Virus record (IMG/VR): IMGVR_UViG_3300000439_000015 | Location: 1 to 64,000 of that record | Reading direction: 5' to 3' (one strand) | DNA: 64,000 nt | From: a virus | Lineage: Duplodnaviria; Caudoviricetes | Shown here: positions 43,010 to 64,000 of the stretch, one piece after another | Position numbering within the stretch: the first letter of the stretch is position 1 | How the letters are laid out: each line of letters starts with the position of its first letter | Notes under the pieces: model-generated | The model's database searches: none | What the model was told of the DNA's origin: nothing | The model's input: the letters and a program-made list of their open reading frames with translations, nothing else | Position numbers and translations under genes: made by a program

Positions 43010-43010
43010 T

Positions 43011-44089: not shown

Positions 44090-44316
44090 TAGGCGATTGG
44101 GTTGGGGTTGGGCGCTACGGGAACGGCGCTAATGGTTGCTGGTGGAATGAAGTCTGTTCCGTCGTATGTCCAACCGACGTTTGGAACCATGTCATTGTTC
44201 GTCACGTCAATGATGTTCGCCGAAGAGGTGAACGACGTAGCGAGAGTATCGTCCGTGTTGAGGACAAGTGTGACGTTTCCACCAGCGTCTACGAATGCGA
44301 TTACTACGTTTGCCAT
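44089..44316 (-). CDS. Small fibre-assembly-type protein
   Basis: PNVGWTYDGTDFIPP motif typical of small genes next to glycine-rich fibre genes. Confidence 0.65.
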   Translation of the reverse strand: MANVVIAFVDAGGNVTLVLNTDDTLATSFTSSANIIDVTNNDMVPNVGWTYDGTDFIPPATISAVPVAPNPNPIA

Positions 44317-45626
44317 TAGTTGACCACCTCATTGGTTGTTGAACTGACATTAGTTGAAGGGAATGCTCGCTGGGTTCCTGCAATGCCCCAGACAATGCGC
44401 ACGGCTCCGCCACCTGCCCCTGCCTGAACGTTTGCTGGGATTGCCGCTACTCCACCAGTGTTTGTGCCAACGTACCCCGAGGCAACGGTAAAAGAAGATG
44501 AGTTGGCGCTGGTGATTATGTAAGTTCCATTGAGTGTTAGAGAGAAGTTGTTTAGAAAAACAATCTGCCCAGCCTTGTAAGTGTTGGCTACGGTTATTGT
44601 CGTCGTTGTGCCATTTCCACTTGATGAAGCGCCAGTGTATGTTGCTTGAACTGGCCCAGCACTTGCGGTGCCCACTTGGACGGTGTAAGTCTGGTTTGGG
44701 ATAACCAAGTAGTTGTTGATGTATGCCAATGCTCCACCACCGCCAGAAAAAACACTGCTGAAGGGTGTGGTTAGTGGGGTTGAGTATGGGGGTGAAGGGG
44801 CACTAAAACCCGCACCGCCACCGAAGGCACCGCCACCGCCAGAACCGCCGTAGTTTGCCGTAGGCGAGTAACTGCTCCAAGCGCCGCCAAGACCGCCTGC
44901 CAGACCACTGGTACTGAAATCTGTAGTGCCAGCCGTACCATTTGTGTCTATTTGATTGCTGCTGTTGTCGCCTTGACCGCCTGAACCGCCAGCGGAACTT
45001 CCACTTCCGCCCCCAGTGCCACCTAAGGCGTAACCGCTCGATAGTGTCCCCTTAGCGCCACCTGTTCCTGAGTATTGGTAGTTAGCGCCGTACACGCCTG
45101 TTCCACCACCGCCTGCACCACCGCCTACGGTGTACTGGTTCTGGTAGTAGCCAGAGCCACCACCACCACCACCGTCGGTTGATGATGCGCCAGCACTTGA
45201 CCGAGCGCCCGTATTTAGGGTTGTTCCACCTGCTCCGCCATTGGAAGAGTATCCACCAGCACCACCGCCGCCACCGCCGTCATAAGAGTTTCCAGCACCG
45301 CCAGAGCCACCAGTACCTGCCAGTACGACACCGCCTGTTCCATTGGCTTGACCACCAGAAGAAGCCACAATGCTTGCGCTTCCAAAGTACGAGGTTCCGC
45401 CAGAAAAGTATCCGCCACCTGCGCCTACGCAGACGACGCTGATGTTGTATACCCCTGCTGGACACGTCCATGTGTACATCTGGGCGTTGCTTGCCGTAAC
45501 CGAAGAAGTTGCGTACACCGTTGAGGTGAAAAGGTGCGACCCAGTTGATTGGTTGACTAGGACGGTTTGGAACTCCCCGTATCCGTCCACCGACATCTCT
45601 GCTCGTGCTGAAATAATGGGCGACAT
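44316..45626 (-). CDS. Glycine-rich fibre-associated protein 2
   Basis: YTWTCPAGVYNISVVCVGAGGG...GGGGALAYINNYLVIPNQTYTVQVG...GGGAVRIVWG. Confidence 0.75.
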   Translation of the reverse strand: MSPIISARAEMSVDGYGEFQTVLVNQSTGSHLFTSTVYATSSVTASNAQMYTWTCPAGVYNISVVCVGAGGGYFSGGTSYFGSASIVASSGGQANGTGGVVLAGTGGSGGAGNSYDGGGGGGAGGYSSNGGAGGTTLNTGARSSAGASSTDGGGGGGSGYYQNQYTVGGGAGGGGTGVYGANYQYSGTGGAKGTLSSGYALGGTGGGSGSSAGGSGGQGDNSSNQIDTNGTAGTTDFSTSGLAGGLGGAWSSYSPTANYGGSGGGGAFGGGAGFSAPSPPYSTPLTTPFSSVFSGGGGALAYINNYLVIPNQTYTVQVGTASAGPVQATYTGASSSGNGTTTTITVANTYKAGQIVFLNNFSLTLNGTYIITSANSSSFTVASGYVGTNTGGVAAIPANVQAGAGGGAVRIVWGIAGTQRAFPSTNVSSTTNEVVN

Positions 45627-51016: not shown

Positions 51017-52003
51017 CTAGATAATCGAGTTCCAGAAGAAGCCGAGGTCGGCGGCAACAACCTTGTCGTCGAAGGCGATTTCACCTTCAACACGGTCAGC
51101 CTTCAACTCTTCCATGCGGAAGCGTGAAACACCAACCGTGGTGCCGAGGCCACCCGAAACGCCAGTCCACATAAACGTGTAACCAGCCGAAGGGGTCATC
51201 AGACCAGGGTTAGGAGCCGAGTAGCACAACAGAGCGTTGTTGTTGGCGGTGAAGTTGTACGAGCCGGTCAAGCCTTCGTCAGCGTTGTTGACGACTGCCT
51301 TGGCGACGAGCACACGGTCAAGACCGAAGAGTTGAGCAATCAAGTCCTCGGTGATGATGGCACCAGCCTGCGTGTACTTGTAGCGGTCAACCAGCGTGGG
51401 GTGAGCCTTCAACTTCTGAAACACGGGGTACGAGAGCACGAGCGTGTTGGGTTCGTAACCAGTGTTCTGAAGAACCTGATACTTGGCCCACTCGATGTCC
51501 ACGATGGGCAGACCGTTGGTGTAGTCAGACCACTTGATGGTGGTCGCCGTACCAGCGGTACCTGCACCAGCGGTTACACCGATAGCGTCGGTGCCCCACA
51601 CGCCACCCTGAAAGAAGTCCTGCGCCCACTGCACTTCACGGCGCAGCAAGAGACGCTGGGTGACGAACTGCGTCGCTTCCATGTCGGGGTTGAGGGGGTT
51701 GTCGGCGTTAGCACGGGTCTGGTCGCCAATGTCCTTGTGGAAGGCGAACACGTCGGCCTGATAGGTGTCCGTGGTGAGGCCGTAACCTGAACCAGCGGAA
51801 GCCGTACCGTCGGCACGACGCTGAGCCTCGTCACGGAACCAGTCGTCCTTGGTGTACTTGAAGTAGAGGTTCGACTTCTTGTCCACTGGAACGACAGGGA
51901 AAACCTTGTCCGCAATGAAGTTGTTGGTGTTCTGCAAGTACGCAACCGAGATGTTCGTCAGGATTGCGTCAATGTGAACGTTGTTTACTGATGGCTGTGG
52001 CAT
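51017..52003 (-). CDS. Major capsid protein
   Basis: HIDAILTNISVAYLQ...IADKVFPVVPV...ITEDLIAQLFGL...VVAADLGFFW. Confidence 0.9.
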   Translation of the reverse strand: MPQPSVNNVHIDAILTNISVAYLQNTNNFIADKVFPVVPVDKKSNLYFKYTKDDWFRDEAQRRADGTASAGSGYGLTTDTYQADVFAFHKDIGDQTRANADNPLNPDMEATQFVTQRLLLRREVQWAQDFFQGGVWGTDAIGVTAGAGTAGTATTIKWSDYTNGLPIVDIEWAKYQVLQNTGYEPNTLVLSYPVFQKLKAHPTLVDRYKYTQAGAIITEDLIAQLFGLDRVLVAKAVVNNADEGLTGSYNFTANNNALLCYSAPNPGLMTPSAGYTFMWTGVSGGLGTTVGVSRFRMEELKADRVEGEIAFDDKVVAADLGFFWNSII

Positions 52004-52021: not shown

Positions 52022-52759
52022 CTAGATAGCACGCACGGCGGCGGCAGCCGACAGAGCGAGGGTGATAACGTCACCAGCAGCCGAGGCTGGGGTGAGCGCA
52101 GTACCAACGACAAACGGAATCGTCGTTGACGTGACGTTCGTACCCGACAGGTAGAACGTGGTCGAAACCGCACGACCTGAACTGTCAACCGTGATGGGAG
52201 CGCCAGCGGTAACGGCAGCGCCAGCAATCACCTTCGTGATGCCCGAAATCGTGATTTCGGCCTCAGAGTTGCCCTCAACACCAGAGTTGGAGTTCAACTT
52301 GGTGATGGGCTGGTTCTGAAGAACACCGACGGGACGGTCAGAAGCAGCCGTGACGAGGGTGGCAACAGGGCCGCTCTGGTAGGGCTGCGACGAAGGGGTC
52401 ACGTTGGCGGTGACGGTAGCCGAGGTCAGCGCCAGAACCGAGAGGTTCACGGCGGTGATGTTGGTACCACTGTAGGTAATGCCCGTGATGAAGGCACCAG
52501 CAGGAATCTGCGAGGTACCAGCAGCAGCGGTGACGGGAGCGCCAAGGACGATTCCAGCACTCGACGCAACAGTGATGCCAGTAATCTGGCTGCTGTTGGT
52601 GGTCGTGGTACCAGTGAAAGCGGCGGACGACAAGCCTGCAACCTTCACGAACTTGAACTGTGGCGAGGACGACACGATTCCGTTGGTGATGGTTGAGTTC
52701 AGGGTGTTGTCAGCCGTCATCGTAATCTTGACGGCGTAGGGATTCTGCTCGAAAGCCAT
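52022..52759 (-). CDS. Capsid cement/decoration protein (DUF2190-like) with an inserted beta module
   Basis: RPVGVLQNQP...ISGITKVIAGAAVTAGAPITVDSSGRA...AAGDVI. Confidence 0.75.
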   Translation of the reverse strand: MAFEQNPYAVKITMTADNTLNSTITNGIVSSSPQFKFVKVAGLSSAAFTGTTTTNSSQITGITVASSAGIVLGAPVTAAAGTSQIPAGAFITGITYSGTNITAVNLSVLALTSATVTANVTPSSQPYQSGPVATLVTAASDRPVGVLQNQPITKLNSNSGVEGNSEAEITISGITKVIAGAAVTAGAPITVDSSGRAVSTTFYLSGTNVTSTTIPFVVGTALTPASAAGDVITLALSAAAAVRAI

Positions 52760-52762
52760 GGC

Positions 52763-53578
52763 TTAGCGACCTTTCTCGTTGAGGTAAGACGTGTACAGGT
52801 CGGGGTTGCTCTGGGCGACAGACATCAGCGCAGCCTCGAACGAAGGAGCGGTACCGGCAGAAACAGCAGCCTTGGCAAGCGATTCCATCTTCGAGTAAGC
52901 GTCGTCGGTCATGACGGGAGCGTCCGAACCAACCTCAGTGAAAACAACGTTGGTTTCCACGAGGGCGTTAGCACTGTCGAGGGCCTTGACGATTTCGCCA
53001 GCGAGAACGCCGTCGGATTCGGAAAGGCGACGAAGGGCAGGGCCAACAATCGTAGGGTCAATGTTGAGGTGCGACCAGCCAGCAGCCTTGATGACAGCAG
53101 CCTCATCAGCACGAGCCTCACGCTCGGCAATAAGGGCAGCCTCAGAAGCAGCAGCCTTGCGAAGGGCAGCCTCGGCGTTAGCCGAAGCCTCGTCCAGCAT
53201 CTTGCGAATAGCCTGTGGCATCGCCTTGATGATGTCAGCCTCGCTCGCAGCCTCAGGAACGATGACAACTTCGGTCATCTCTGAAACTTCAGACATAGTT
53301 TTCTCCTTGAAAACTTTGAGGGTTTCCAAAACAGCGTTCGCTGCCTTGGCGGTGTCCAGTAAAATCTCGTCTGCTTCGATTTCCTCAGCAGGCAACTCGG
53401 TTACCTCTTCAACAGGGGCAACTTCGTCCGAGACTTCAGTGGGACGGAGTTCGTCAAGCACCGCTTCAGCATCCGCAGGGCTTGCCGACTTCATTACTAC
53501 CCAACCATCGTGCAGGTGCGCAGGGTGGTCAACACCCGACGTTTCCTTGATGCTCAGTTTCACAAGTTTGCGAGCCAT
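52763..53578 (-). CDS. Scaffold protein (XkdF-associated type)
   Basis: ARKLVKLSIKETSGVDHPAH N-terminus, acidic linker, coiled coil, NPDLYTSYL C-terminus; directly upstream of cement and capsid. Confidence 0.7.
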   Translation of the reverse strand: MARKLVKLSIKETSGVDHPAHLHDGWVVMKSASPADAEAVLDELRPTEVSDEVAPVEEVTELPAEEIEADEILLDTAKAANAVLETLKVFKEKTMSEVSEMTEVVIVPEAASEADIIKAMPQAIRKMLDEASANAEAALRKAAASEAALIAEREARADEAAVIKAAGWSHLNIDPTIVGPALRRLSESDGVLAGEIVKALDSANALVETNVVFTEVGSDAPVMTDDAYSKMESLAKAAVSAGTAPSFEAALMSVAQSNPDLYTSYLNEKGR

Positions 53579-53693: not shown

Positions 53694-54509
53694 CTAAAAG
53701 GGGTCGTCGGAGATGGTGGAATAGAGGGGGCAAATGTCCTTGAACGAGCACCACTTATCGCACAGATTGTTGGCGATTGGTGGGAAGTAGCCAGCGTTGT
53801 ACCAGCCCTCAATCTTCGCCCACGCCTCTCGCACACGGCGCTCTGCGTATAGGACATCTTCGTCGGTGACATCAATCACCAGCGTCTTGCCGAACTGAAC
53901 GTAGAGCAGTCGAATCTGCTTGGGGCGCTCTCCAAGAACTTGCTCACACAGGTAGGCGTAAATCTTGGCAGGTAGAATGGCTGCCGCTTTGTACTTGTCG
54001 GTAGGGACTTTGCCAGTCTTGTAGTCCACAATCACCAACGAGCCGTCAGGGTCACGGTCTAAGCGGTCTAGGATGCCACGGAGCGTCCATCCGCCCATGT
54101 CTACGTCCATCTTGATTTCGATGCCCTCTGAGGTGATTTCCTCTGGGTTCTCCATCGTGAAGTAGGTGCGGATGTACTTGGCGAGGTCACGGGCGAACGT
54201 TTGCACGCCGACCTCATCGAGTTCCATTTCACCAGCAATCTCGTCGCTCACGAGCGTGGGGAATAACTCACGCATCACTTCGAGGGTGTAGTCGAGGGTG
54301 CGGAGTTCGGGTGTCTCGGTGGTTCGCAGGAACACGGTTTCCAGCACTTCGTGGAACACGGTGCCACGGTAAGTCGCCATCTTCTTCGCCTCTGGGAGAC
54401 GCTCGATGGTGGAATACTGATACTGACGTGGGCACGTCTCGATTTGGTTCACTCGGCTAGGTGATACGCCATAGGGCTTTTCGCCTAGATACACAGGAGC
54501 GCTCGACAC
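53694..54509 (-). CDS. RecB/Cas4-like PD-(D/E)XK exonuclease with Fe-S cysteines
   Basis: VSPSRV...CPRQY, RGTVFHEVLE, LRGILDRLD...IVDYKTG, LCDKWCSFKDICP. Confidence 0.85.
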   Translation of the reverse strand: MSSAPVYLGEKPYGVSPSRVNQIETCPRQYQYSTIERLPEAKKMATYRGTVFHEVLETVFLRTTETPELRTLDYTLEVMRELFPTLVSDEIAGEMELDEVGVQTFARDLAKYIRTYFTMENPEEITSEGIEIKMDVDMGGWTLRGILDRLDRDPDGSLVIVDYKTGKVPTDKYKAAAILPAKIYAYLCEQVLGERPKQIRLLYVQFGKTLVIDVTDEDVLYAERRVREAWAKIEGWYNAGYFPPIANNLCDKWCSFKDICPLYSTISDDPF

Positions 54510-54536
54510 GATGTCAACCTTATCAGTTGGGTGATG

Positions 54537-54818
54537 CTAGATGGTGGACTGCGTAATGGGGCTGATGAACGTGTTGTATTCGATTGACGACTTCAACACC
54601 CGTGCCATCTTTTCACCAGTGCGCAACGCTTCTTTGCGGTTCTTGCAGTAAATGGAGAAATCGGAGACGGGGGTGATTACACCAGTGAACGCTTCGTTAC
54701 GGATGAGACGCAGTTCGCCGTACTCTTTGTTCTGCCAAGCGACCAAACGGTAAGGGCCTAACTTGGCTTCCTGTTGACCAAAGTCATCAGGCTCAGTCCA
54801 TTTCAGCAACTTACGCAA
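54537..54818 (-). CDS. Hypothetical protein
   Basis: Probable TTG start overlapping the upstream TAA; the track ORF begins at 54878. Confidence 0.5.
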   Translation of the reverse strand: MRKLLKWTEPDDFGQQEAKLGPYRLVAWQNKEYGELRLIRNEAFTGVITPVSDFSIYCKNRKEALRTGEKMARVLKSSIEYNTFISPITQSTI

Positions 54819-55098
54819 CTTCAACGGCAGAACCCGTGGTTTCCTCGGCGTACTGGACAAGGTGGCTGGCGGTAGCAAGAGTGCTCAGACTGTCAATCTG
54901 GCCTTCCAACTTGGTGATGTGGTCGCCTGCCTCGATGACGGCCTTGGTGAGGCGCTCGTTGTCGGCTGCCAACTGCGTAAGCGTGGCGCTCTGCTTGTGG
55001 GCGAGGTTGATAAGGGCGGTGATGTCATTGTCGTCAGGGGTGCCCTGCACGACGGCCTTCATGATGCGTTCGGTCAGTTCGTCTAGGTTGCTGCTCAT
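54811..55098 (-). CDS. Coiled-coil hypothetical protein
   Basis: ATG 55098 behind AAGGAG; heptad pattern. Confidence 0.65.
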   Translation of the reverse strand: MSSNLDELTERIMKAVVQGTPDDNDITALINLAHKQSATLTQLAADNERLTKAVIEAGDHITKLEGQIDSLSTLATASHLVQYAEETTGSAVEVA

Positions 55099-55156
55099 AA
55101 CACTCTCCTTGGTAGGGGGGTTGCCTAACTCTAGTGTATCACCACTATTTATGAAA

Positions 55157-55519
55157 TCAGACATTCCCAACGTATCGGAGCACGGCGGCGTTCTCGAAGG
55201 TTGTTTTGGCGGTGTATTCCACCTCAGTTGTTTTGCCGCAGTCGTTGCACTGAAGGGGCATGGGGTTAGCGATTTTGCGAACTCGCCAGTCGTGAGAGCA
55301 GTAGCGAACATCACCATTGTTGACAAGACGGATGTTGCGTCCGTTTGCGCCAACCTTGATTAGCCCTTGTTGCTCTAGTGCTTTGAGGTGAACCGAGATG
55401 GTAGAGGTCGAAGAGATGCCCACACCAGCACCTATGGTGCGATACGTCGGGGCGTAGCCGAGATTATCCCAGTGCCAGCCGATGTATTTGAGTATCTTGT
55501 CCCGTGTACCTGTAGCCAT
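55157..55519 (-). CDS. LexA-type winged-HTH regulator with a C-terminal Zn ribbon (no peptidase domain)
   Basis: KILKYI...GYAPTYRTIGAGVGISSTSTISVHLKALEQQGLI; CSHDW...CNDCG. Confidence 0.75.
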   Translation of the reverse strand: MATGTRDKILKYIGWHWDNLGYAPTYRTIGAGVGISSTSTISVHLKALEQQGLIKVGANGRNIRLVNNGDVRYCSHDWRVRKIANPMPLQCNDCGKTTEVEYTAKTTFENAAVLRYVGNV

Positions 55520-55543
55520 TCACCACAGCGTAGCAGGGTTTAG

Positions 55544-56023
55544 TTATTCGGCGTGAGTGTTGGCAAGCATGCCAGTGGCGGTATCAGCATTGAAGGAAGC
55601 GATTGCCGCCCTCTGAGCCAAAGCCTGAGCCGCTGGGTCTTTCTCGTATGACGCTTGTCCGCCCAATGGGGCGATGTGGTCGAGAATGGCCTCGTGAGCC
55701 TGCGCTGCATCGAGGTGGGCCTGAATCGCACGGGTCGCACGCATGCGGTCACCGTTAGACATTTCACTGCTGTGCTTCAGAACCATGTTCTTGATTCCTT
55801 CGGCGGTGGTGCGGTGAATCTGGGCGAGGGGCTTGGTCAGGCCATTGGAGATGCCGATGCCACGAGCGAAGTTCTGGGCGTTGGTGGAAAGGAAGTGCGA
55901 ACTGCTCACGGCCTTTTCCATGTCTGCACCCGACTGCCACTGGTTGCCGTGGAAAGCGTGGCCCTTGACATCACCCTTAGCCAACTGTACCCACGCAATG
56001 ATTTCGTTGTTCAGATTGTCCAT
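55544..56023 (-). CDS. GNQ-tag family protein
   Basis: QLAKGDVKGHAFHGNQW, then His/Ala helices. Confidence 0.75.
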   Translation of the reverse strand: MDNLNNEIIAWVQLAKGDVKGHAFHGNQWQSGADMEKAVSSSHFLSTNAQNFARGIGISNGLTKPLAQIHRTTAEGIKNMVLKHSSEMSNGDRMRATRAIQAHLDAAQAHEAILDHIAPLGGQASYEKDPAAQALAQRAAIASFNADTATGMLANTHAE

Positions 56024-56559
56024 TAGATACCTTCCGAGAAACTTCCAACGCCAGCGGCTTGCTCGGCGCTACGGACGTTGTTTTCAGCAGCATCAACCTT
56101 ATCTTGTGCGTCACTCATACGTTGTCCCGTGGCGTGGGCTGGGTCGGCGTTGGTGATTGTGTCACGGTTCGCCTCAAAGTTTTTGGTGTCACGGGCTGCA
56201 CTTGCCAAACCAGCGTGGGCGTTGGCTGCGCTTTCGTGGGCGGTGGCAACATCACGGAGTTTTCCAGCCATTGAGCCAGTCGCCTTGTCTGCCATTGCGT
56301 GGTACATCTGGGCTTGCTGATTGTGCGAAGCGCTTTGCTGCGTTGAGGTGGCTTCAGCGTTGCGACCTGCGTTCATCATGTCGTTTGCACCCCAGCGGCC
56401 TGGGTCTACACGACGGGCTGGCTGTGCTGAAGCGCCAGTCGGGATGCCGCCAGTGTGCTGGTTCCCATTGAAGGCATGGCCTGCGGTTTCGTACTTCAAG
56501 ATTTCACCAACCTTGGCCCAGTTTGGGGCAAGTGCGTCTGTTGAGAAAGGGTTTGTCAT
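56023..56559 (-). CDS. GNQ-tag family protein
   Basis: MTNPFSTDAL...EILKYETAGHAFNGNQH; start ATG 56559. Confidence 0.75.
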   Translation of the reverse strand: MTNPFSTDALAPNWAKVGEILKYETAGHAFNGNQHTGGIPTGASAQPARRVDPGRWGANDMMNAGRNAEATSTQQSASHNQQAQMYHAMADKATGSMAGKLRDVATAHESAANAHAGLASAARDTKNFEANRDTITNADPAHATGQRMSDAQDKVDAAENNVRSAEQAAGVGSFSEGI

Positions 56560-56563
56560 TTGA

Positions 56564-57499
56564 TTACATTCCTTCGTCTGCGCCCGTGGCACTACCTAGG
56601 CGTTCGGCAACCATGCTGGCACCTCGTGCAAGCATGGTGTTGTCACGGAGAATAGGACTTGTTGAGCCGCTTGCGTGTTGTTCGGCAACCCAGTTGTGAA
56701 GTTCTGCGGCGTGGTCGTGGGCGGCGATTGCCGACTTCAGAGCGCCCTGCTTCTCAGGGTTAGTCTCCTTGGCAAGGGCGTTTTTCAGCACTTGGCTGGC
56801 AATGCCGTGCTCGAAGGCTGCTGCACGGTGGGCGTTGGCGATTTGTGCGCCAGTACCACCGTGCTGAACAAGGTCACGAGCGTGCGAGGCAGCCATGAGA
56901 GCAGACCAGCCAGCGCCGTCCCGTCGTACATGGTCAAAGCCCTTGTCGAAGGGGTTTGAGGCGTACTGATTGCCGTGAAACTCGTGGCCCTTTACGTCGC
57001 CCTTCGTCACAAAAGACTTTTCAGCACCAGAGAGGATGACGTTGCCGTCGGTCACGCCTGCATTGCGACCAGACGTTGCCTTCATGGTTGCATCGGCGGC
57101 TTTCAGGGTGTTTTCAGCACTGGGGTTGTCGGCAGCGGCGTAGTGTGCGGCTGCTGCGGCTTCGTGCAACTTGGCGGCACCCTCTTCCATTGCGTATGAA
57201 CGCCCGTTGGGGTTGTGGTAACTGGCGACAAGTTGACGCAAGCGCCCTGCCTCTTCGAGGTGCATACGAGCCATGCGGTCATGGGCCATGGTAGAAACGG
57301 TTGGCGACTTTTTGCCTGCGCTCGCTGCCATCTGCGACGCTCGGTCACGAAGTGAGTTCAGAGCATCCCGTGTTTCACCAGTGGAACGAGCCGTGTATTG
57401 GTTCCCGTTGAAAGCATGGCCTGCCAACTCGTACTTCAGGATTTCACTGGCGGACTTCCAAACTGGAACCAGTGCGTCAGTAGAGAAGGGGTTTGTCAT
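56564..57499 (-). CDS. GNQ-tag family protein with two tagged modules
   Basis: MTNPFSTDAL...EILKYELAGHAFNGNQY and internal FVTKGDVKGHEFHGNQY. Confidence 0.8.
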   Translation of the reverse strand: MTNPFSTDALVPVWKSASEILKYELAGHAFNGNQYTARSTGETRDALNSLRDRASQMAASAGKKSPTVSTMAHDRMARMHLEEAGRLRQLVASYHNPNGRSYAMEEGAAKLHEAAAAAHYAAADNPSAENTLKAADATMKATSGRNAGVTDGNVILSGAEKSFVTKGDVKGHEFHGNQYASNPFDKGFDHVRRDGAGWSALMAASHARDLVQHGGTGAQIANAHRAAAFEHGIASQVLKNALAKETNPEKQGALKSAIAAHDHAAELHNWVAEQHASGSTSPILRDNTMLARGASMVAERLGSATGADEGM

Positions 57500-57509
57500 T
57501 ATGTTTTCC

Positions 57510-57941
57510 TCACTTTGGCAGGTCAGCGTTGCCGTAGTGGTTTACCGCAGCCATTGTCTGGTTTACTGCCTTGGAAGCGTCTGTCGCTACGTTCTTGTTG
57601 CTGTAGTCCGCAACCTTGGCCCACGTCTTTTGAGCAGCGAGGTGCGCTTGGGCGAGGGCGTTCAGGTTGCCAGCAACGTCTTTGTAGCCAGTTTCGTTTC
57701 GTGCTGCCATTGCTTTGGCTGCTTCACCACGGTGGTACTCCGCCATGCCCAAAGCGTCTGCACGGTTTGGTGCACCGCCAATACGGTCACTGCCAACTTT
57801 GGCTGCTCGTCGCACAATGTTGTCCGTTCTGCCCGAAGTGAACTGGTTGCCGTGAAAGGGGTGACCATCAACGTCGCCTTTAGCCACGGGGTAGCGAGAG
57901 AGTGACTTGAGTAGTTCGTCGGTGTGGAAGCCAGATGACAC
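57510..57941 (-). CDS. GNQ-tag family protein
   Basis: MSSGFHTDELL...YPVAKGDVDGHPFHGNQF; RBS AAGGAG. Confidence 0.75.
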   Translation of the reverse strand: MSSGFHTDELLKSLSRYPVAKGDVDGHPFHGNQFTSGRTDNIVRRAAKVGSDRIGGAPNRADALGMAEYHRGEAAKAMAARNETGYKDVAGNLNALAQAHLAAQKTWAKVADYSNKNVATDASKAVNQTMAAVNHYGNADLPK

Positions 57942-58014
57942 GAGGTTCTCCTTGTAGGGATTTCTACCTCAGATACTACGCCACGATTTCCTAAACCGAT
58001 GTTCCAAAACCCCA

Positions 58015-58043
58015 TTGACGGTGGTGATAAACGGTGCTAGACT
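58015..58043 (+). promoter_or_regulatory. Promoter of the small antisense RNA
   Basis: TTGACG-17-TAGACT with extended TG. Confidence 0.75.
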
Positions 58044-58049
58044 TCGCCC

Positions 58050-58128
58050 GACTGACTTGGGGGCGCTGGACACAACGCCAAGTACATTCACACCGACCCC
58101 TGCCGAAAGGTGGGGGATTCGGTTTATT
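58050..58128 (+). ncRNA. Putative ~79 nt trans-acting antisense sRNA
   Basis: Own promoter; 5' hairpin ACTTGG/CCAAGT with loop CTGGACACAA; 3' GAAA-loop terminator (G.U pairs favour the plus strand) plus TTTATT; 14-nt identity to 59987-60000. Confidence 0.65.
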
Positions 58129-58621
58129 GGGGCCTGTTTGCGTCCCAAAGTGAGGTGAAATGGCCTCGCTCCGCTTCGCCAATGTGCTCCAAGAGCAGGT
58201 ATCCATCGAGATGGTCTGTCTCGTGCTGAAAGATGCGAGCGAGCAATCCTTCCCCGTCAATCCTGTACTGGTTCCCGTCAAGGTCAAGGGCCGTCAAGGT
58301 CGCTTTGTACGAGCGGCTGATTTGCCACCCGAACTTGGGCACCGACAAGCATCCTTCGGGCGTGACCTCGATGTCAAGGGGGTCAGTGAAAACCTCTGGG
58401 TTGATGGCGACGTGAGCGCCCGTGCCGTCGCCGCTGTCCCAAACGAACATGCGGTGCGAGTAGCCGATTTGGTTGGCGGCAAGCCCAACACCGAGGTGAA
58501 AGTACATGGCCTCAACCATCTCGGCGGCAATCATCTTGATGTTGTCTGTGATTTCACTGACCGAGGTCGTGGGGGCTTCCAAAATGGGGTCGCCATAGAA
58601 ACGCAGGGCTGGGATGTTCAT
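58124..58621 (-). CDS. def: Peptide deformylase
   Basis: GVGLAANQIG, EGCLSV and QHETDHLDG motifs; start ATG 58621. Confidence 0.92.
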   Translation of the reverse strand: MNIPALRFYGDPILEAPTTSVSEITDNIKMIAAEMVEAMYFHLGVGLAANQIGYSHRMFVWDSGDGTGAHVAINPEVFTDPLDIEVTPEGCLSVPKFGWQISRSYKATLTALDLDGNQYRIDGEGLLARIFQHETDHLDGYLLLEHIGEAERGHFTSLWDANRPQ

Positions 58622-58884
58622 CGTGCGCCCATCTCTCTCTTTGCCTCTTCGAGCAGTTCGGCGGTGAAGTCCTCTGGCGACAGTTCGGTCTTGGCGTGGG
58701 CCATCAACTTGCCGCAAGCGATGCTGAACGCCCATGTGTACAGGCTGAGTTCCTCGTCGAGGTGCGTCAACTCCTTGCGGTAGCCGAGAACCATCTGGTC
58801 GTGCTTGGCAATCAGCCCTGCCGTCCCAGTGCGCATGGTAGCCAACTTCTCTTCGAGGTCGGCAATCTGCTCCGACTTACGCAC
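58618..58884 (-). CDS. Coiled-coil hypothetical protein
   Basis: 88 aa, overlaps both neighbours. Confidence 0.6.
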   Translation of the reverse strand: MRKSEQIADLEEKLATMRTGTAGLIAKHDQMVLGYRKELTHLDEELSLYTWAFSIACGKLMAHAKTELSPEDFTAELLEEAKREMGAR

Positions 58885-59029
58885 GGTACTTCTCTGGCAC
58901 TGGGCCTGTGTACGGAGCGCCGTTCAGGTCTGAGGTGAACGGGAAACGTGTCGAGCACTGCTGGCACATGACGTAGGTCTTAGCGCCTGCGTTCATCAGA
59001 ATCCACTTGTGGAAGGCGCAACTAGCCAT
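58877..59029 (-). CDS. Small Zn-ribbon protein (50 aa)
   Basis: MASCAFHKW...VMCQQCSTRF; manual translation; overlaps both neighbours. Confidence 0.55.
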   Translation of the reverse strand: MASCAFHKWILMNAGAKTYVMCQQCSTRFPFTSDLNGAPYTGPVPEKYRA

Positions 59030-59195
59030 GCTGAACCGTCATGACGTATTTGCTGGCGTTGGCGGTGAACGCCTGCGCCTCTTCCTTCGTGGCGAAGTCG
59101 GGCGATGTCATGACGGTGTAGTAGTAGCCATCACCACCTTGGTAGGTCTTGAAGAAGAACCCGTTGCCATTCCAAATCTCGACGACTTTACTCAT
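59022..59195 (-). CDS. Small hypothetical protein
   Basis: MSKVVEIWNGNGFFFKTY...FATKEEAQAF. Confidence 0.55.
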   Translation of the reverse strand: MSKVVEIWNGNGFFFKTYQGGDGYYYTVMTSPDFATKEEAQAFTANASKYVMTVQHG

Positions 59196-59398
59196 CAAAT
59201 AAACGCCTTCATGTCTTGCGCTTCTGCTTCCCATTGCTCTGGTGAACCGAGACGAACGACGTGCAAGCACACGTCCGTGCCGTTCTCCATGAGTTCTGAT
59301 TCGGTGTCGGTCAACTCCACGCCTGCGTGGGTTTCGCACACCTGCTGGGTGCAGAACTTGTTGTCAATGCCGTACTGAAGCCACTCATCAAAGGTCAT
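59195..59398 (-). CDS. Small hypothetical protein with Cys/His motif
   Basis: MTFDEWLQYGIDNKFC...VCETHAG...DVCLHVVRL. Confidence 0.65.
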   Translation of the reverse strand: MTFDEWLQYGIDNKFCTQQVCETHAGVELTDTESELMENGTDVCLHVVRLGSPEQWEAEAQDMKAFI

Positions 59399-59408
59399 GG
59401 CGTTCACC

Positions 59409-59942
59409 TTAGCAGCCGTCGGCGTTCCATTCTGGGTGGATTCCGCCATTACGGTTCCAATAGAAGGCGGCGACACGGAACTGGTCTGCGATGCTCGCAT
59501 CTTGGGCGTACTGGGCGGTGATGCCAAGGGCGTGAGCGCCGAACTGCCACGTTGGGGGCATGAACTGGAAGATGCCTGCTGCGCCTTCTGGGTTCACCTC
59601 ACGGTAGTTGTGGAAGTCCGTGGGGGTCGAGCGAGATTCACGCCACATGACGCAGGTGAAGGCCGCTCGGCTCGGTGGTGGGAGCAAGTCCGTGTAGCCA
59701 CCAGAGGGGGCTGTGTGGCTCGCTACGGGCTTTGGCTTGGCTTTGTGGTGAACCACAGGCTTGGCGACGTGAGCGTGCACCACGGGGCGGCTGTTGCCGT
59801 ACCAGAAGATGGTAATCATCTTGGGCGTAGTCGTCCGAGCGGCGAGGTGATAGGCCACCTTGGGCGCAGCGTGGAACGTTCCTACGACAAGGGAGACTAC
59901 GACTGTCAGTGCGAGGAAGCCACCTCGCACCGTGCCTAGCAC
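59409..59942 (-). CDS. Secreted/anchored Rpf-like lytic transglycosylase
   Basis: N-terminal hydrophobic helix, Pro/His/Lys linker, CVMWRES...AAGIFQFMPPTW...QDASIADQ...W...C lysozyme-like domain; start GTG 59942 inferred. Confidence 0.75.
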   Translation of the reverse strand: MLGTVRGGFLALTVVVSLVVGTFHAAPKVAYHLAARTTTPKMITIFWYGNSRPVVHAHVAKPVVHHKAKPKPVASHTAPSGGYTDLLPPPSRAAFTCVMWRESRSTPTDFHNYREVNPEGAAGIFQFMPPTWQFGAHALGITAQYAQDASIADQFRVAAFYWNRNGGIHPEWNADGC

Positions 59943-59995
59943 GAGCCTGCCTTGGTAGAGGGATAGAACGGTACCGCTATTGGGTTGCTGGACAC
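59936..59995 (-). CDS. Leader uORF (19 aa) overlapping the Rpf-like start
   Basis: AAGGAG-6 nt-GTG; MSSNPIAVPFYPSTKAGSC*; ends in GTGCTAG overlapping the Rpf GTG. Confidence 0.5.
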   Translation of the reverse strand: MSSNPIAVPFYPSTKAGSC

Positions 59996-60031
59996 AACGC
60001 ACTCCTTTGGTTGCCCATTGGGGGATGCACC

Positions 60032-60060
60032 AGTTTACCCGAATGTGACGGATAAGGCAA
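60032..60060 (-). promoter_or_regulatory. Promoter of the uORF-Rpf-def operon
   Basis: TTGCCT-17-TAAACT. Confidence 0.65.
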
Positions 60061-60137
60061 GTACTAAGCGATTTCCTTGCAAATAAAGGGTTTTGCCCAC
60101 ACCGTCGAGGTGATAGAAAAAAAACATGCAAAAAGAC

Positions 60138-60167
60138 TTGACAGATGTCACACGGGGGTGCCATACT
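60138..60167 (+). promoter_or_regulatory. TGTCAC-box promoter 5 (drives the large ncRNA)
   Basis: TTGACA-18-CATACT with TGTCACA at 60146-60152, then GGTTAGGTA as at 9169. Confidence 0.8.
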
Positions 60168-60173
60168 GGTTAG

Positions 60174-60504
60174 GTAAGAAAGCAGCAGTGCCGAGGTGCG
60201 CTTGTAAAGTCCCCACGAGAAAGTGGTCGAGCAAGCCGAAGGCCAGCCTGTGAGCCGTACCACCTGTTTGCGACACGGGCGCATTCAGTAAGGCCGTAGG
60301 GAGTTCGGAGCGAACTACGGCGAGGTGGGTACGGAACTCCTAGTGGGGGTGAGTGTTAGGCGTGAGGAAAAGCGCAAACCACCGAACCGCAAGGGGTAGG
60401 GTCGGGCGCTCGTTGGGAAACGGGTAGTCCGCCAGTGACATCAGTACGGAAAACCAAGGCTACCGAGTTAGAAGTCCCCTCAGCAAAGGCTGGGGGGATT
60501 TTCT
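60174..60504 (+). ncRNA. Putative large structured ncRNA (~330 nt), family unassigned
   Basis: Promoter plus terminator, no plausible ORF; nested long-range stems and GNRA loops (see findings). Confidence 0.7.
60472..60504 (+). terminator. Terminator of the large ncRNA (abuts the polyprotein stop)
   Basis: AAGTCCCCTCAGC-AAAG-GCTGGGGGGATT-TTCT. Confidence 0.7.
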
Positions 60505-62092
60505 ATTTGTAGACCTCGTTCAGCACTTGATAGTGGATTTGGCTTGCCTTGTCGTCGTCGCCTGCCTCGTGCGCCTCTTGCTCTTGGGCGAGCAGTTTGG
60601 CAGCCTTGTCGCTGAGGTGTTCTTCCTTGGGCTTCGTTGCCTTTTGGAACGGGAGCAGGGCGTACTTGGCCCAGATTTCGCCAGCGGTTTTGGAAACGTC
60701 GCCTTTTTGGACTGGGCTTTCCCAAACAACTGCGTCGGGGTTCCAGATTGAGTAGTTCGTGTGGTCTTTGGGCTGCGAAATGTCTTGTTGTGAAACTAGG
60801 GTCATCTTGCCATCTACGTTTGCGGTCTTTCCATCCTCTTCGTTGGTTAGGCCGCTTGTAAATAACTTCGCTCCATCTCTAAGTTTCCCACGGAGTACGG
60901 TTCCGCCCTCACCAGCGTAGGCACGAGCGACTTCTTCGCTATCGGTTGCGTAAACTGCTTTTCCGTCTAGACCGATTTCTTTCTTGCCGCTTAGGGTATC
61001 CGAGACTGCTTGCGAACTTCTTACGCCTCGATAAACGGTTACTCCACTTGCGTCAGTCGTTTCCCACTGATTTCCGTGAAAGACGTGGCCCTGAACGTCG
61101 CCCTTTTGGACGTGCCGCTCTACCATGGACTTCGCCCACGAGTAGCCAGCATCACCACCCCACGCATCCCACGCCACACGTCCGTGCGACGGGTATCCGT
61201 GTTCACCCTGACGGAAGCCTTCTGCCTTCTTGTCGGGCTGGTGACGGTCAAAATACGCCTTCATCCGCTTCAGAGTGTCCAGTGAAATCTGGTGCCCGTT
61301 ACCGAGGTCTGACGCACGCTTGCGCCCGACGTTGGTGAACCCTGAGCCAGCCTTGCCGTCGGCAATCCATTCCAATGCTCGCTTAGCGGCCTCTTGTACC
61401 CCCTGCGGCGGAGTGAACGTATCCTTCTTCACCGCAAAGTGGGCAGCGAGGGTTTGGAACACGTCAATAAGGCGGTTCAAGTTGTCAATCATCTGGGCGT
61501 ACTTGTCGTCCATGCCGAGTTGGTGAAACTCATCCTGTAGCGCCTCTAGACGGGGCCGTAAGCCTGCCAGCGTCTCCAAGGTCAGTCCTGCGTTCCAAAG
61601 GGCTGTGGCGACCTCTGGGGTGGCTTCACGGACACGAAAGTTGCAGAGAGCGTGGTCAATGCCGACTATTCCACCTTGGGCAAACATCAGGTTCTTGGGA
61701 CGACGGTCTGCGTTGGCGGTGATGTAGTCGAACAGGCGTAGGTTTCTGCCTTGGTTATCGTTTGGGTAGCAGTCCTCGCTGCCGAGTTCCAATCCTGACT
61801 TGCCGTCAATGTACGGCATAATCACCATCTTGGCATCGGTTCCCACAAAGCGGCAGTCACGGACGGGGGCGTTCATCGCCTCTCCGACACGGGCGGCGAG
61901 ATACTCCTGAGCGGCGAGTATTTCAGCACGGTACAAACGACCCGTCTTGTTGCCGTGCCAGTCCTTCATGTGCTTCTCGACCCCTTCGGAGCCATCAGCA
62001 AAGCGAACACGGAACATTCCGTCGTTCTGGTTGCCCTTCACAAACATGGGTTCACGAGACACGATGTCCGTGCTGGTGAACGGCACGAACAT
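60503..62092 (-). CDS. Multidomain GNQ-tag protein: HipA/PI3K-like kinase, conserved phage head domain, ART-like domain
   Basis: QEYLAARVG...FDYITANADRRPKN...GIDH; TPPQGVQEAAKRAL...GRVAWDAWGGDAG; VQKGDVQGHVFHGNQW then VYRG...GKAVYATDS...ARAYA...YSIWNPDAV. Confidence 0.75.
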   Translation of the reverse strand: MFVPFTSTDIVSREPMFVKGNQNDGMFRVRFADGSEGVEKHMKDWHGNKTGRLYRAEILAAQEYLAARVGEAMNAPVRDCRFVGTDAKMVIMPYIDGKSGLELGSEDCYPNDNQGRNLRLFDYITANADRRPKNLMFAQGGIVGIDHALCNFRVREATPEVATALWNAGLTLETLAGLRPRLEALQDEFHQLGMDDKYAQMIDNLNRLIDVFQTLAAHFAVKKDTFTPPQGVQEAAKRALEWIADGKAGSGFTNVGRKRASDLGNGHQISLDTLKRMKAYFDRHQPDKKAEGFRQGEHGYPSHGRVAWDAWGGDAGYSWAKSMVERHVQKGDVQGHVFHGNQWETTDASGVTVYRGVRSSQAVSDTLSGKKEIGLDGKAVYATDSEEVARAYAGEGGTVLRGKLRDGAKLFTSGLTNEEDGKTANVDGKMTLVSQQDISQPKDHTNYSIWNPDAVVWESPVQKGDVSKTAGEIWAKYALLPFQKATKPKEEHLSDKAAKLLAQEQEAHEAGDDDKASQIHYQVLNEVYK

Positions 62093-63073
62093 TTAGAAAC
62101 TCATTCCGTGACTTTGCCCGTAAGTAACTGCGCCCATTTGGAAACGGCTCATCATGTCGTTGTAATCGCTCGCACGACCCATCGAGGCGAATGTGTCTCT
62201 CAAACCAGACAGCGTGTTTGCCATGCCCATGATGTCGTTTCTGCTGGGGTTGCCAAGCAGTGAAAAGTTTGGCATGCCTGTCAAGCGACCCAACCTCGTG
62301 CCCACCGTGGCACCGTCGAAAGCCATGGCGTGGTCAATGCCGAGAATCGAACCGTCCTTTTGCACCCAGACGTTGCCTGGGTTCATGGCGTTTCGACCAC
62401 CAAACACGCCGTCGCCGTTGCCGATGAGTTCACCAAAGAAGCGCAACTGGTTCAAGCGATTGGCGTTGTCGGGGTTCAGACTGTGCAGGGCGCTGGGATT
62501 GTTTCCGCCATTCACACCGGCAATGTCGGCGGCAGGCTTGCCTTCAAGCCATGGTTGGACAATCTGGTTTTTGTTTCCAGCAACACCCTCGCAACAGCGG
62601 ATGGGCATGCCGAGGGCTTCGCCAACCTTAGATGACAAGATTTCGTTCTGCGCTTGGCGTGAGGCGGTCAAACCCTGAGCAGGGAACGGCTTGAAGTTCT
62701 TGATGGCTCCGACAGAACCGTCCTTCATCTCGACCTTTTGAAAGCCTTTGTTCATTGCTCCGCCCATGCGCATTACACCACCTAACGGCTTGTTGATTTC
62801 CGAAGTGTTCAACCCTACCGCTTTGCCCGTTGTCTTTAGGGGCGGCGCTGGCTTAGATGGTGCGGCGGCTGGTGCGGCGGCACGCCCAGCGGTTGGTCGG
62901 GGCGCACGGCCCACCCGTGGAATGGCTGGCTGAACAACACGAACTGCACGTCCACCGCCGTTTCCACCTGCACCGCCTCGGAAGTTGCCGTTCTCGTCAA
63001 GCCATTGGTTACCGTTGAACTTGTGGCCTGGCAACTCGTATTTCAGTACACGGAGAATCTGACGGAAGTCCAT
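62093..63073 (-). CDS. GNQ-tag protein with HipA/PI3K-like kinase domain
   Basis: VLKYELPGHKFNGNQW, Pro/Ala/Arg linker, QNEILSSKVGEALG...LIGNGD...PGNVW...GIDHAMAF. Confidence 0.75.
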   Translation of the reverse strand: MDFRQILRVLKYELPGHKFNGNQWLDENGNFRGGAGGNGGGRAVRVVQPAIPRVGRAPRPTAGRAAAPAAAPSKPAPPLKTTGKAVGLNTSEINKPLGGVMRMGGAMNKGFQKVEMKDGSVGAIKNFKPFPAQGLTASRQAQNEILSSKVGEALGMPIRCCEGVAGNKNQIVQPWLEGKPAADIAGVNGGNNPSALHSLNPDNANRLNQLRFFGELIGNGDGVFGGRNAMNPGNVWVQKDGSILGIDHAMAFDGATVGTRLGRLTGMPNFSLLGNPSRNDIMGMANTLSGLRDTFASMGRASDYNDMMSRFQMGAVTYGQSHGMSF

Positions 63074-63075
63074 GG

Positions 63076-63291
63076 TTACCCCTCTAGGAACGAAACGTAG
63101 GCACCGTTTGTCCAGTCCTTGCCGAGGTACGCAATGGTCTGCGCATCATCGGCACCCATCATCTTGCATGTGTCAACGAGGTTTTGGGCAACGCCCGTCA
63201 CCGAGGTGATTGAATCGCCATCGAACACGATTGTTCCGCTTGGAGCAGCATCGGGATTGTTGACGGGAACGAAGATGATTGTCTGTGCCAT
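63076..63291 (-). CDS. Small hypothetical protein (71 aa)
   Basis: ATG 63291 with TAAAGT 7 nt upstream; ends WTNGAYVSFLEG 2 nt before the kinase start. Confidence 0.65.
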   Translation of the reverse strand: MAQTIIFVPVNNPDAAPSGTIVFDGDSITSVTGVAQNLVDTCKMMGADDAQTIAYLGKDWTNGAYVSFLEG

Positions 63292-63320
63292 ACGACACAC
63301 TTTACTATGGGTTTGGTGAT

Positions 63321-63719
63321 TTAGACAGTTGGAGTTGAGGCAGTCTGAACGTAGTTCTGCCCACCTACGCCCCACTGCTGATACTGCGAAGGCTTGTCGC
63401 TACTGGGATTTGGAAGAACCTTCTGTCCAGCAACGAGTGACCAACGGTTGTCAATCGGGCGAGAGCAGGTGGAACAGGTGCGTGACTGCGAAGAGGCAGC
63501 GAACTGACCCGTGATGGAGCCGTCGGCGTTGCGCTCAATCCAAGTGTCGGGAACCTTGATGGTATTGGAATGCCCCGACGCACACGTTGCAGTGAAAAGC
63601 AGGTTCTTAGCGTCAAAGGCGTTCAGTCCGCCCGTTGAGTGCTGGTTGCCACGAAAGACGTGGCCCTTCAAGTCGCCCTTTGTAATGGGGTACAAGAGTG
63701 CGTCGGTGCTGAAGTCCAT
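63321..63719 (-). CDS. GNQ-tag protein with Zn-ribbon payload
   Basis: MDFSTDALLYPITKGDLKGHVFRGNQH; CASGH...CSTC. Confidence 0.75.
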   Translation of the reverse strand: MDFSTDALLYPITKGDLKGHVFRGNQHSTGGLNAFDAKNLLFTATCASGHSNTIKVPDTWIERNADGSITGQFAASSQSRTCSTCSRPIDNRWSLVAGQKVLPNPSSDKPSQYQQWGVGGQNYVQTASTPTV

Positions 63720-63720
63720 G

Positions 63721-64000
63721 CTACGAGTTTACCGTAGGGTTTGCGAGTATCCCGATTTCGCACATGCAGTCGGGGTGAAATGGCGGCAGGTCTGCGTCGC
63801 TTGTGACGGGCAGTCCGTCTTGAGCCTGACACTCTGGGCAAGCGCCATCAGCAGCGATGATTTGCATCTGAGCGCCGTTGGCTTGGAGTGTGTTCCTTAC
63901 GCCGAGGTTGAATCCACGGTTCGCCTCTGTGTTGGCAATCATCATGGCTCGATGTTCGGCGGCTATTTCAGCAACCACTGCCGCCATAATCGCCGCTTTG
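63721..64000 (-). CDS. C-terminus of MuF / SPP1 gp7-like head morphogenesis protein (runs off window end)
   Basis: RAMMIANTEANRGFNLG...DGACPECQAQDG...PPFHPDCMC. Confidence 0.85.
   Translation of the reverse strand, partial: KAAIMAAVVAEIAAEHRAMMIANTEANRGFNLGVRNTLQANGAQMQIIAADGACPECQAQDGLPVTSDADLPPFHPDCMCEIGILANPTVNS

Follow-up and report, generated by a model that had tools for sequence, protein, structure and literature searches.

A short peptide tag, GDxxGHxFxGNQ, stands before many separate protein modules in the head-gene block of an uncultured actinobacterial phage and probably marks where a head protease cuts capsid-carried enzymes apart. The phage is known from IMG/VR record IMGVR_UViG_3300000439_000015, a single-contig virus record of 85,207 bp; its first 64 kb are the window analyzed here, and positions above 64,000 refer to the rest of the genome. 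From sequence comparison, we put at about an even chance the fuller proposal that a protease site specific to each phage lineage is followed by a universal handle, both being set on polyvalent effector modules packed into the capsid. Phages carry proteins in their heads and inject these with their DNA. Outside T4, P1, P22 and the giant phages, we know of no sequence rule for such head-carried, injected proteins, and a header shared by over 1,600 protein clusters would supply one. The tag stands before modules of ADP-ribosyltransferase, kinase, nuclease and antirestriction type, and the assigned hosts of the phages concerned range from Actinobacteria to Verrucomicrobia and Proteobacteria.

A Peptide Header Repeated Through the Head-Gene Block

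A six-frame scan of the window returned nine matches to GH.F.GNQ, all on the minus strand and all inside the open reading frames (ORFs) that the initial annotation had named as carriers of the tag; 0.0008 matches are expected from composition, and none appeared in 200 shuffles. The total is higher in the whole 85-kb genome, where 16 strict copies and one degenerate copy (GHPFRGNGN) stand against about 0.001 expected by chance. Fifteen of the 16 strict copies lie inside one block, 55544-71245, between the genes for the portal and the XkdF-type protease on one side and those for the scaffold, the cement protein and the major capsid protein on the other. The tags had been described as lying directly downstream of MuF; the block does contain a MuF-like gene, but copies flank it on both sides and it is itself one member of the array. 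This array comprises about 20 modules, with MuF standing alone, and more than one module is found in only five ORFs, the remaining ORFs being single-module genes. The tag lies at residues 16-38 in 13 ORFs, in each case behind one of two leader types, and five tags are internal.

The tag copies are constrained as peptides. Their invariant residues are encoded by differing synonymous codons from copy to copy, and the first 38 codons of the two genes that begin with MTNPFSTDAL show 10 synonymous and 10 non-synonymous differences; therefore the constraint acts on the peptide and not on the DNA, as had been proposed from this pair of genes, and a DNA-level repeat can be ruled out. The His, Asn and Gln of the tag are invariant and its acidic residue nearly so, and six residues are identical in every copy found, across lineages with diverged flanking sequences. 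The co-variation of two subtypes noticed in the window extends well beyond it: in the whole genome YE goes with FN (5/5) and GD with FH or FR (9/9), and in unrelated metagenomic proteins GD goes with H or R in 552 of 553 cases and YE with N in all 11. Inside the motif, the co-varying positions pair G-D with H/R, G-E with R and Y-E with N. This internal co-variation argues that the two sides of the motif are most likely read together by a partner.

Structure prediction suggests that the tag does not fold on its own. An AlphaFold2 model of residues 1-48 of ORF 55544-56023 (142-row alignment) places a leader helix at residues 2-15, with a predicted local distance difference test (pLDDT) score of about 78, and the tag as a coil with one tight turn (pLDDT 60-68). 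A second model, of a 208-residue region of ORF 60503-62092, has a core of pLDDT 70-80 and a tag below 50. As modeled, the tag would be a non-folded linear motif; no solved structure contains it, as judged from Protein Data Bank (PDB) sequences.

Two leader types precede the tag in this genome. The F-x-T-D-x-L leader reported for most of the ORFs is indeed present, as F-[ST]-T-[DE]-x-L-L, but it shares its place with a second, helix-type leader, [DN]-x-E-I-x-x-W-[VIL]-x-x-A-K. The latter, ending in A-K or T-K, also opens the MuF-like protein and one further ORF, both without the tag. Among 240 fetched hits of the profile search described below, leaders differ among lineages and can be as short as 5-6 residues; internal tags lack a leader, and in a fused protein of the relative L041 a leader-like stretch sits internally. 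The suggestion that the leader is a packaging signal is not supported as a general rule, given this variation by lineage, the minimal length, the internal position in the fused relative and the absence of leaders at internal tags.

Distribution of the Tag in Other Phages

A profile of the 30-residue tag region was scored against 1.84 billion representative proteins and matched 1,639 protein clusters at E<=1e-3, of which 373 reached E<=1e-10. The consensus of the 240 fetched hits reads [VIL]-x-K-G-D-[VL]-x-G-H-[PEA]-F-[HR]-G-N-Q-[WY]-T-x-G-x-G. Up to nine tags occur in one protein, with a median tag-to-tag spacing of 211 residues in the fetched hits, and the tagged proteins reach 3,461 residues. 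Of 239 proteins, 128 have the tag within their first 50 residues and only three within their last 50, and at least about 100 residues follow it in 95% of the proteins. Not one of the fetched proteins begins directly at G-D, 5-6 residues preceding it at the minimum, and the stretch downstream of the tag is enriched in Gly. From its position and from the length that follows, the tag is, as far as the aligned proteins tell, the header of the module after it. Partner domains include ART-PolyVal, ADPrib_exo_Tox, DRAT, PARP, GNAT, PI3/PI4-kinase, ParB_N, MuF, pentapeptide repeats, InPase, DarA_N and PBECR1, and the same leader and tag can head clearly unrelated modules in different phages.

In relatives of the phage (contigs of 120-126 kb), the gene order is the same, but kinase, MuF and ADP-ribosyltransferase (ART) modules are fused in one protein of 1,803 residues (P0040); another protein, P0001, has 2,588 residues and nine tags. 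The present genome therefore appears to be a split version of such an array. In the contigs inspected, the tagged proteins always lie between portal and capsid genes, and a head context was found in every lineage inspected. In other lineages the tag also occurs in MuF proteins (at residues 27-38 in L005 and L076), in a C-terminal extension of the portal, in DUF2213 'head maturation protease' proteins and inside DarA_N proteins. The portal and capsid-protein families differ between tagged phages. The profile search had been proposed together with a test of co-occurrence with MuF and XkdF-type proteases. MuF accompanied the tag in all eight actinophage-type lineages inspected, no Pfam MuF was found in Xanthomonas phage Rb1, and other loci have a DUF2213 protease. 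Rb1 (PQ569993) is the one cultured phage with the tag, which lies near residue 739 of its 'internal head protein' (XPA09464), a protein of 1,221 residues that also contains InPase and DarA_N domains.

A degenerate DNA pattern was also scanned over 185,579 prokaryote genomes and gave 59 hits, of which about half are chance matches and about 27 are true tags. These were found in metagenome-assembled genomes labeled Verrucomicrobiota, Acidobacteriota, Bifidobacteriaceae, Dehalococcoidia, Bacteroidales, Saccharibacteria, and Beta- and Gammaproteobacteria, such labels being tentative for phage-like contigs, and in the isolate genomes of Ideonella livida (TBM-1) and Hydromonas duriensis (DSM 102852). 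The tagged proteins of prokaryote genomes are InPase-DarA_N-ddrB-ParB polyvalent proteins, proteins with DarA_C and PBECR1, and Mu-type portals with a tagged C-terminal extension. A tblastn search with the 22-residue consensus gave no match in the phage collection, and a megablast of the tagged block gave none. The tag was without match in PDB sequences, Pfam, PHROGs and NCBIfam, and no relevant paper came up when the literature was searched for the motif strings, in agreement with the earlier impression that it had not been described as a system. Systems in which proteins carried in the capsid share a signal and are processed by a protease are already known; this signal, its breadth and its two-part design appear not to have been described.

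The Junction Before the Tag and the Head Protease

As read from the aligned copies, the junction has two parts: a constant core, GDxxGHxFxGNQ[WY], and three lineage-variable residues before the core. At loci with an S78_2 (XkdF) protease, including that of the present phage, the triplet is [VILF]-x-K, the K-type being found in 21 of 21 loci, whereas at all 17 DUF2213 loci it is [RK]-x-[LA], with Arg or Lys as the third residue upstream. Counted over unique tags, Lys precedes G-D in 69 of 81 cases at S78_2 loci and in none of 62 at DUF2213 loci. Further versions are ..[VA]-[AL]-L-D in proteobacterial DarA-type proteins and phage Rb1, [VIL]-x-N in verrucomicrobial portal extensions and x-x-A in Bifidobacteriaceae contigs. 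Since the triplet switches with lineage and protease, the Lys is best read as a lineage-specific choice that lies outside the tag proper. The reading of [hydrophobic]-x-K as the cut site has thus to be divided: the triplet tracks the protease family, with K-type residues throughout the S78_2 loci, but the Lys itself is confined to certain lineages and gives way to Leu or Ala at DUF2213 loci and to Asp, Asn or Ala elsewhere.

The two protease families show no profile similarity (hhalign probability 0.1), which leaves a common fold unsupported; each has matches to PHROG families annotated as 'head maturation protease'. Among the head-block proteins, Pfam scans detected the S78_2 domain and no S77 family. 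Searches of several tagged contigs with the S77, S78, ClpP and Mu-type protease families gave no match, but two of these searches, including that of phage Rb1 with S77, gave none in any control genome either and so carry no information.

The same boundary is respected by insertions. In the present genome, EIAK|GD, the tag and 130 residues up to PISK|ADDEPDY occupy a place where the relative L041 has a bare EISK|ADDDTDY, and in L076 MRLL|GD with the tag and about 165 residues corresponds to a bare IKLL|AEF in L005. In these two independent cases, the aligned sequences indicate that cassettes of tag and module are inserted exactly after the last residue of the triplet.

Proposed Mechanism and Alternative Explanations

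A cargo unit would consist of the lineage-specific triplet (here [VIL]-x-K), the core G-D-x-x-G-H-x-F-[HR]-G-N-Q-[WY], a flexible Gly-rich linker and a module of at least 100 residues. Such modules would enter the procapsid fused to, or alongside, MuF, portal and protease. The phage's own head-maturation protease would then cut right before G-D, reading the lineage-specific residues upstream, and the constant peptide, now at the N-terminus of the released module, would serve as a handle in some conserved step, for example one that keeps the module in the head or lets it leave with the DNA. The array of the present genome is largely divided into genes of one module, each of which has a short leader and a tag. 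Several features agree with a cut just before G-D by the phage's own head protease: the tag is a header, recurs before each module, needs a few residues upstream and follows a triplet linked to the protease, the inserted cassettes begin at this boundary, and the tag is modeled as unfolded. A hydrophobic residue three positions before the cut is also found in the sites of T4 gp21, [LI]-x-E, and of herpesvirus assemblin, [VL]-x-A|S. The motif, its place as a header, its spread and the co-variation of triplet and protease family are read directly from the sequences; we infer cleavage, packaging, ejection and the function of the handle. Regarding the earlier proposal that the tagged modules are head cargo, their association with the head is backed by context, namely the gene order, fusions into MuF-containing polyvalent proteins in relatives and tags inside portal, MuF, head-protease and DarA_N proteins of other phages, and packing and ejection would follow from it as proposals. 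A wider version, in which the core is a universal, transferable handle, read by a single conserved step in assembling the head or ejecting the DNA in phages of at least six bacterial phyla, and the triplet a swappable site for each phage's protease, so that both form a general cargo code, is put forward tentatively, and we would sooner expect it to fail than to hold. The split into core and triplet makes the idea directly testable. If true, the code could allow injected effectors to be found by sequence and chosen proteins to be loaded into phage heads, and it would explain how polyvalent proteins of several thousand residues become separate enzymes.

Several observations weigh against this mechanism. 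Thirteen conserved residues downstream of a cut are unusual for a protease site, and the tag is not present in this genome's protease fusion, scaffold, capsid protein, portal or MuF. The correlation of triplet and protease draws on a few deep lineages, and shared descent alone could produce it; DUF2213 is a protease by annotation only, and the kinase-like and MuF assignments in this genome lie below curated cut-offs. The pattern [VILM]-x-K-[GSA] occurs at six sites in the scaffold-like protein (1.2 expected) and at seven in the protease fusion (1.7 expected), one of the latter just upstream of the protease domain, and is not enriched in the capsid, portal and cement proteins, capsid and cement together having one site. 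Scaffold and protease being proteins usually digested by head proteases, this enrichment offers minor support for the proposed cut, and only minor support because the shuffle null is weak for amphipathic helical proteins.

Among the other explanations that might account for the tag, the one we take most seriously, while still thinking it unlikely, is docking without cleavage, in which the whole 16-residue peptide binds one conserved head component (MuF, the portal, the inner surface of the capsid or DNA) so that each module is tethered and the polypeptide is left uncut. In favor of docking, the motif combines length and invariance with internal co-variation, is modeled as unfolded on its own and is kept on single-module proteins, and MuF accompanies it in all the actinophage-type lineages inspected. 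One tag per polypeptide would, however, suffice for loading, yet each module has its own, and the triplet changes with the protease family while the core stays constant. Portal and capsid-protein families differ between tagged phages, and MuF as the universal partner is weakened by its being tagged itself in L005 and L076 and by the lack of a Pfam MuF in Rb1. We regard it as improbable that the tag stays on the effector and acts in the infected cell, where it might bind a host factor, switch on activity or serve as a stabilizing N-terminus, the head context being that of delivery only. Such a role would agree with a core that is constant across very different hosts and head-gene families, and with the one tagged gene outside the head block, but the host factor would have to be conserved in bacteria as far apart as Actinobacteria, Verrucomicrobia and Proteobacteria, and the tags also head parts that are not effectors, such as MuF, portal extensions and head-protease proteins.

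The insertions, fusions and fissions of cassettes at tags, and the presence of the same header on unrelated modules, could also be understood if the tag were a neutral linker inherited with the cassettes, which marks safe points for recombination or fusion and has no part in targeting or processing. That six residues are invariant in every copy despite diverged flanks, that synonymous codons vary under what must be constraint on the peptide, and that the tag is a header and almost never a trailer (3/239 in the last 50 residues) make this a poor candidate. Virus capsids are known to undergo Asn- and His-dependent maturation cleavages and to form Lys-Asn crosslinks. With these precedents, and with His, Asn and Gln invariant and an acidic residue nearly so, the tag might cut itself or form an isopeptide-type link to a head protein through these residues, with no recognition by a protease. 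We find this the least credible of the four: a 13-residue peptide modeled as unfolded is unlikely to be catalytic alone, no solved structure resembles it, and the match between triplet and protease family would be left unexplained. A 2A-like ribosome-skipping peptide, which shares G-D-V with the tag, was rejected, as N-terminal copies behind leaders of 5-25 residues would be purposeless and the mechanism is eukaryotic.

Comparison With Known Systems

The closest parallel in design is the capsid-targeting sequence (CTS) of T4, found on IPI-III and Alt and removed by gp21. There, as here, a short shared peptide opens otherwise unrelated proteins that travel in the head (in the present genome, the 13 ORFs with a tag near the N-terminus), and a hydrophobic residue stands three positions before the cut, which is presumed here. 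The two peptides have no sequence similarity, and the conserved residues of the tag follow the presumed cut, so that the product would retain them. Unlike the CTS, the tag is also internal, before every module of multi-module proteins; the T4 protease belongs to S77 and those considered here to S78_2 or DUF2213. Targeting and cleavage have been proven by experiment in T4, while here they are proposed from the sequence.

The tagged proteins also belong with the polyvalent proteins of phages and conjugative elements (Iyer, Burroughs, Anand, de Souza and Aravind, 2017; PMC5512222), with which they share MuF, ART-PolyVal, DarA_N, InPase, PBECR1, ddrB-ParB, kinase and GNAT domains and the location among head genes. 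The hallmark domains (MuF, ART-PolyVal, DarA_N, InPase, PBECR, ParB-like) are found with the tag, and polypeptides of 2-15 domains occur in relatives, whose tagged proteins reach 2-3.5 thousand residues, e.g., P0040 and P0001; the array of the present genome differs in being split into single-module genes. Processing mainly by zincin-like metallopeptidases has been proposed for polyvalent proteins (PMC5512222), but none of the ORFs of the block matched a metallopeptidase family in Pfam, the sole peptidase found being the S78_2 domain. The text of that paper holds no match for GNQ or GHxF.

In phage P1, the prohead protease Pro removes about 70-90 N-terminal residues from DarA, which lies on the inner surface of the capsid (PMC12810830). 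DarA and Hdf are antirestriction proteins inside the head, where the tagged proteins would travel as well, and the tagged polyvalent proteins of both proteobacterial prophages and Xanthomonas phage Rb1 include DarA_N domains. No conserved motif is reported for the P1 cut site (PMC12810830). In P1-type phages, tblastn matches were confined to the DarA_N domain of the Hdf genes and stopped short of the tag, P1 DarA itself not having been scanned for it. The processing of DarA (PMC12810830), taken with the gp21 and assemblin sites mentioned above, supports the logic of the proposed cut.

In the MuF polymorphic toxins of temperate phages, an N-terminal MuF is joined to one C-terminal toxin and accompanied by an immunity gene (Jamet et al., 2017; PMC5576092). 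As here, MuF is linked to variable effector modules thought to be delivered by the virion, but in the present genome MuF is a stand-alone protein of 239 residues and one of about 20 modules, fusions occurring in relatives only. No immunity gene was identified, although no search aimed at one was made; a LexA-like repressor gene is present. No conserved motif, linker or cleavage was found in the text of that study. A looser analogy may be drawn with the cargo-loading peptides of encapsulins, where a short peptide and a flexible Gly-rich linker direct cargo into an HK97-fold shell; these peptides have another sequence, are usually C-terminal and involve no protease, and the Dps of the present genome is untagged. 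This Dps/ferritin-like gene (Ferritin, E 2e-15) lies inside the tagged block at genome positions 68139-68600, beyond the end of the window, and is found at the same place in the 120-126-kb relatives; it recalls the ferritin-like cargo of HK97-fold encapsulins.

Tagged Modules and Neighboring Genes

The genes of the head block are all on the minus strand, and their order runs from high to low coordinates. It begins with WhiB, followed by the Mu-type portal (73375-75009) and by a protein of 552 residues with a C-terminal XkdF-type S78_2 peptidase domain at about residues 400-552 (71550-73208 for the whole gene). Poly-Ser runs of about 25-35 residues occur in this protease fusion and in ORF 67124-68128, beyond the window end. 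The ORF at genome positions 64443-65276 has a C-terminus that matches the start of DUF5872 (E 2e-8), and its N-terminal 80 or so residues form a Cys-containing domain that also opens the fused 791-residue protein of L041; in this genome only, a tag and helical module are inserted between the two parts. The MuF-like minor head protein (239 residues, 63721-64440, the window holding its C-terminal part, 63721-63999) opens with an EILEWIEFAK-G leader and is without the GHxFxGNQ core. Its matches to Phage_Mu_F (E 0.001, 20.3 bits, cut-off 29.6) and TIGR01641 (E 3e-4, 21.2 bits, cut-off 39.65) are weak, but tblastn ties it to MuF domains above the Pfam cut-off, and an invariant Cys/His motif also supports homology.

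Next comes a Cys-rich, Zn-ribbon-like module of 132 residues (63321-63719) with an F-S-T-D-A-L-L leader and an ITK-GD tag, whose GH..GNQ part lies at 63642-63665; in L041 the same module is fused inside the 791-residue protein, after an internal leader-like stretch and FFK-GD. The kinase-like protein of 326 residues (62093-63073) consists of a YE-subtype tag (VLK-YE, 63005-63028), a Gly/Pro/Ala-rich linker and a PI3/PI4-kinase or HipA-like domain. Its match to HipA_2 (E 0.014) is below the cut-off, homologs have precomputed PF00454 hits, and no sequence match to the module exists among solved structures. It is paralogous to the N-terminal part of the following ORF (E 4e-13). This, and the weak mutual similarity of about 10 Ala/His-rich helical modules (about half of all, with 16-21% Ala and up to 6% His), makes the description of the payloads as unrelated only partly right.

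The three-module protein of 529 residues (60503-62092) has a kinase-like domain, then a head-associated domain of phrog_2859 type (residues 222-337) and, behind an internal VQK-GD tag (61067-61090), a module with an ADP-ribosyltransferase fold; VQK-GDV also occurs as a bare site at residue 461. For the last module, all top Foldseek matches have the ART fold but are weak (E 2e-3, TM 0.45); they are the diphtheria toxin catalytic domain, RES, KptA/Tpt1 and PARP, and a protein-atlas search gave further ART candidates at 0.80-0.81. The predicted fold thus gives a weak but consistent match to ADP-ribosyltransferases. The phrog_2859 domain (about 115 residues, E 3e-46; 61081-61429 in the window) lies immediately before the internal tag. 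Cyanophages S-CBS1/3, Roseobacter and Vibrio phages and haloarchaeal tailed viruses have it too, there in genes with the annotation portal, capsid protein or prohead protease. Actinomycetia phage DSL-LC01 and Vibrio phage 1.214.O share a domain of this type, without the tag in a local scan.

The remaining tagged proteins of the block are helical. An Ala/His-rich module of 143 residues (57510-57941) has an F-H-T-D-E-L-L leader and a VAK-GD tag at 57843-57866, and a two-module protein of 311 residues (56564-57499), Ala/His-rich in both modules, bears two tags, ILK-YE near the N-terminus (57398-57421) and VTK-GD internally (56966-56989). They are followed by an Ala-rich module of 178 residues from the MTNPFSTDAL start (56023-56559; ILK-YE tag at 56458-56481) and by an Ala/His-rich module of 159 residues (55544-56023), which combines the helix-type leader NNEIIAWVQLAK with a GD tag at 55940-55963. 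The one copy far from the head block, by about 52 kb, is the LTK-GD tag (3230-3253) of a helical module of 131 residues (2915-3310, minus strand), whose neighbors belong to no head-gene families; its leader and tag head unrelated modules in other phages, e.g., pentapeptide-repeat and ART-like ones.

The context genes at the low-coordinate end are a scaffold-like protein of 271 residues (52763-53578), an untagged cement/decoration protein (52022-52759) and the untagged major capsid protein (51017-52003). Between cargo and scaffold genes, at 53694-60284 of the window, stand genes that are not structural. Two of them fall within the tagged block and encode a transglycosylase-like protein, hydrophobic in a stretch at its N-terminus (59409-60284), and a peptide deformylase (58124-58735); the others encode a DNA-binding protein of LexA type (55157-55519) and a PD-(D/E)XK nuclease (53694-54509). 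The record, at 85,207 bp, may be an incomplete genome, as close relatives reach 121 kb and have direct terminal repeats. Collagen-like G-x-Q triplet repeats (e.g., GFQGNQGNQG) occur in minus-strand ORFs at 42617-48298 of the window, which probably encode tail-fiber-like proteins.

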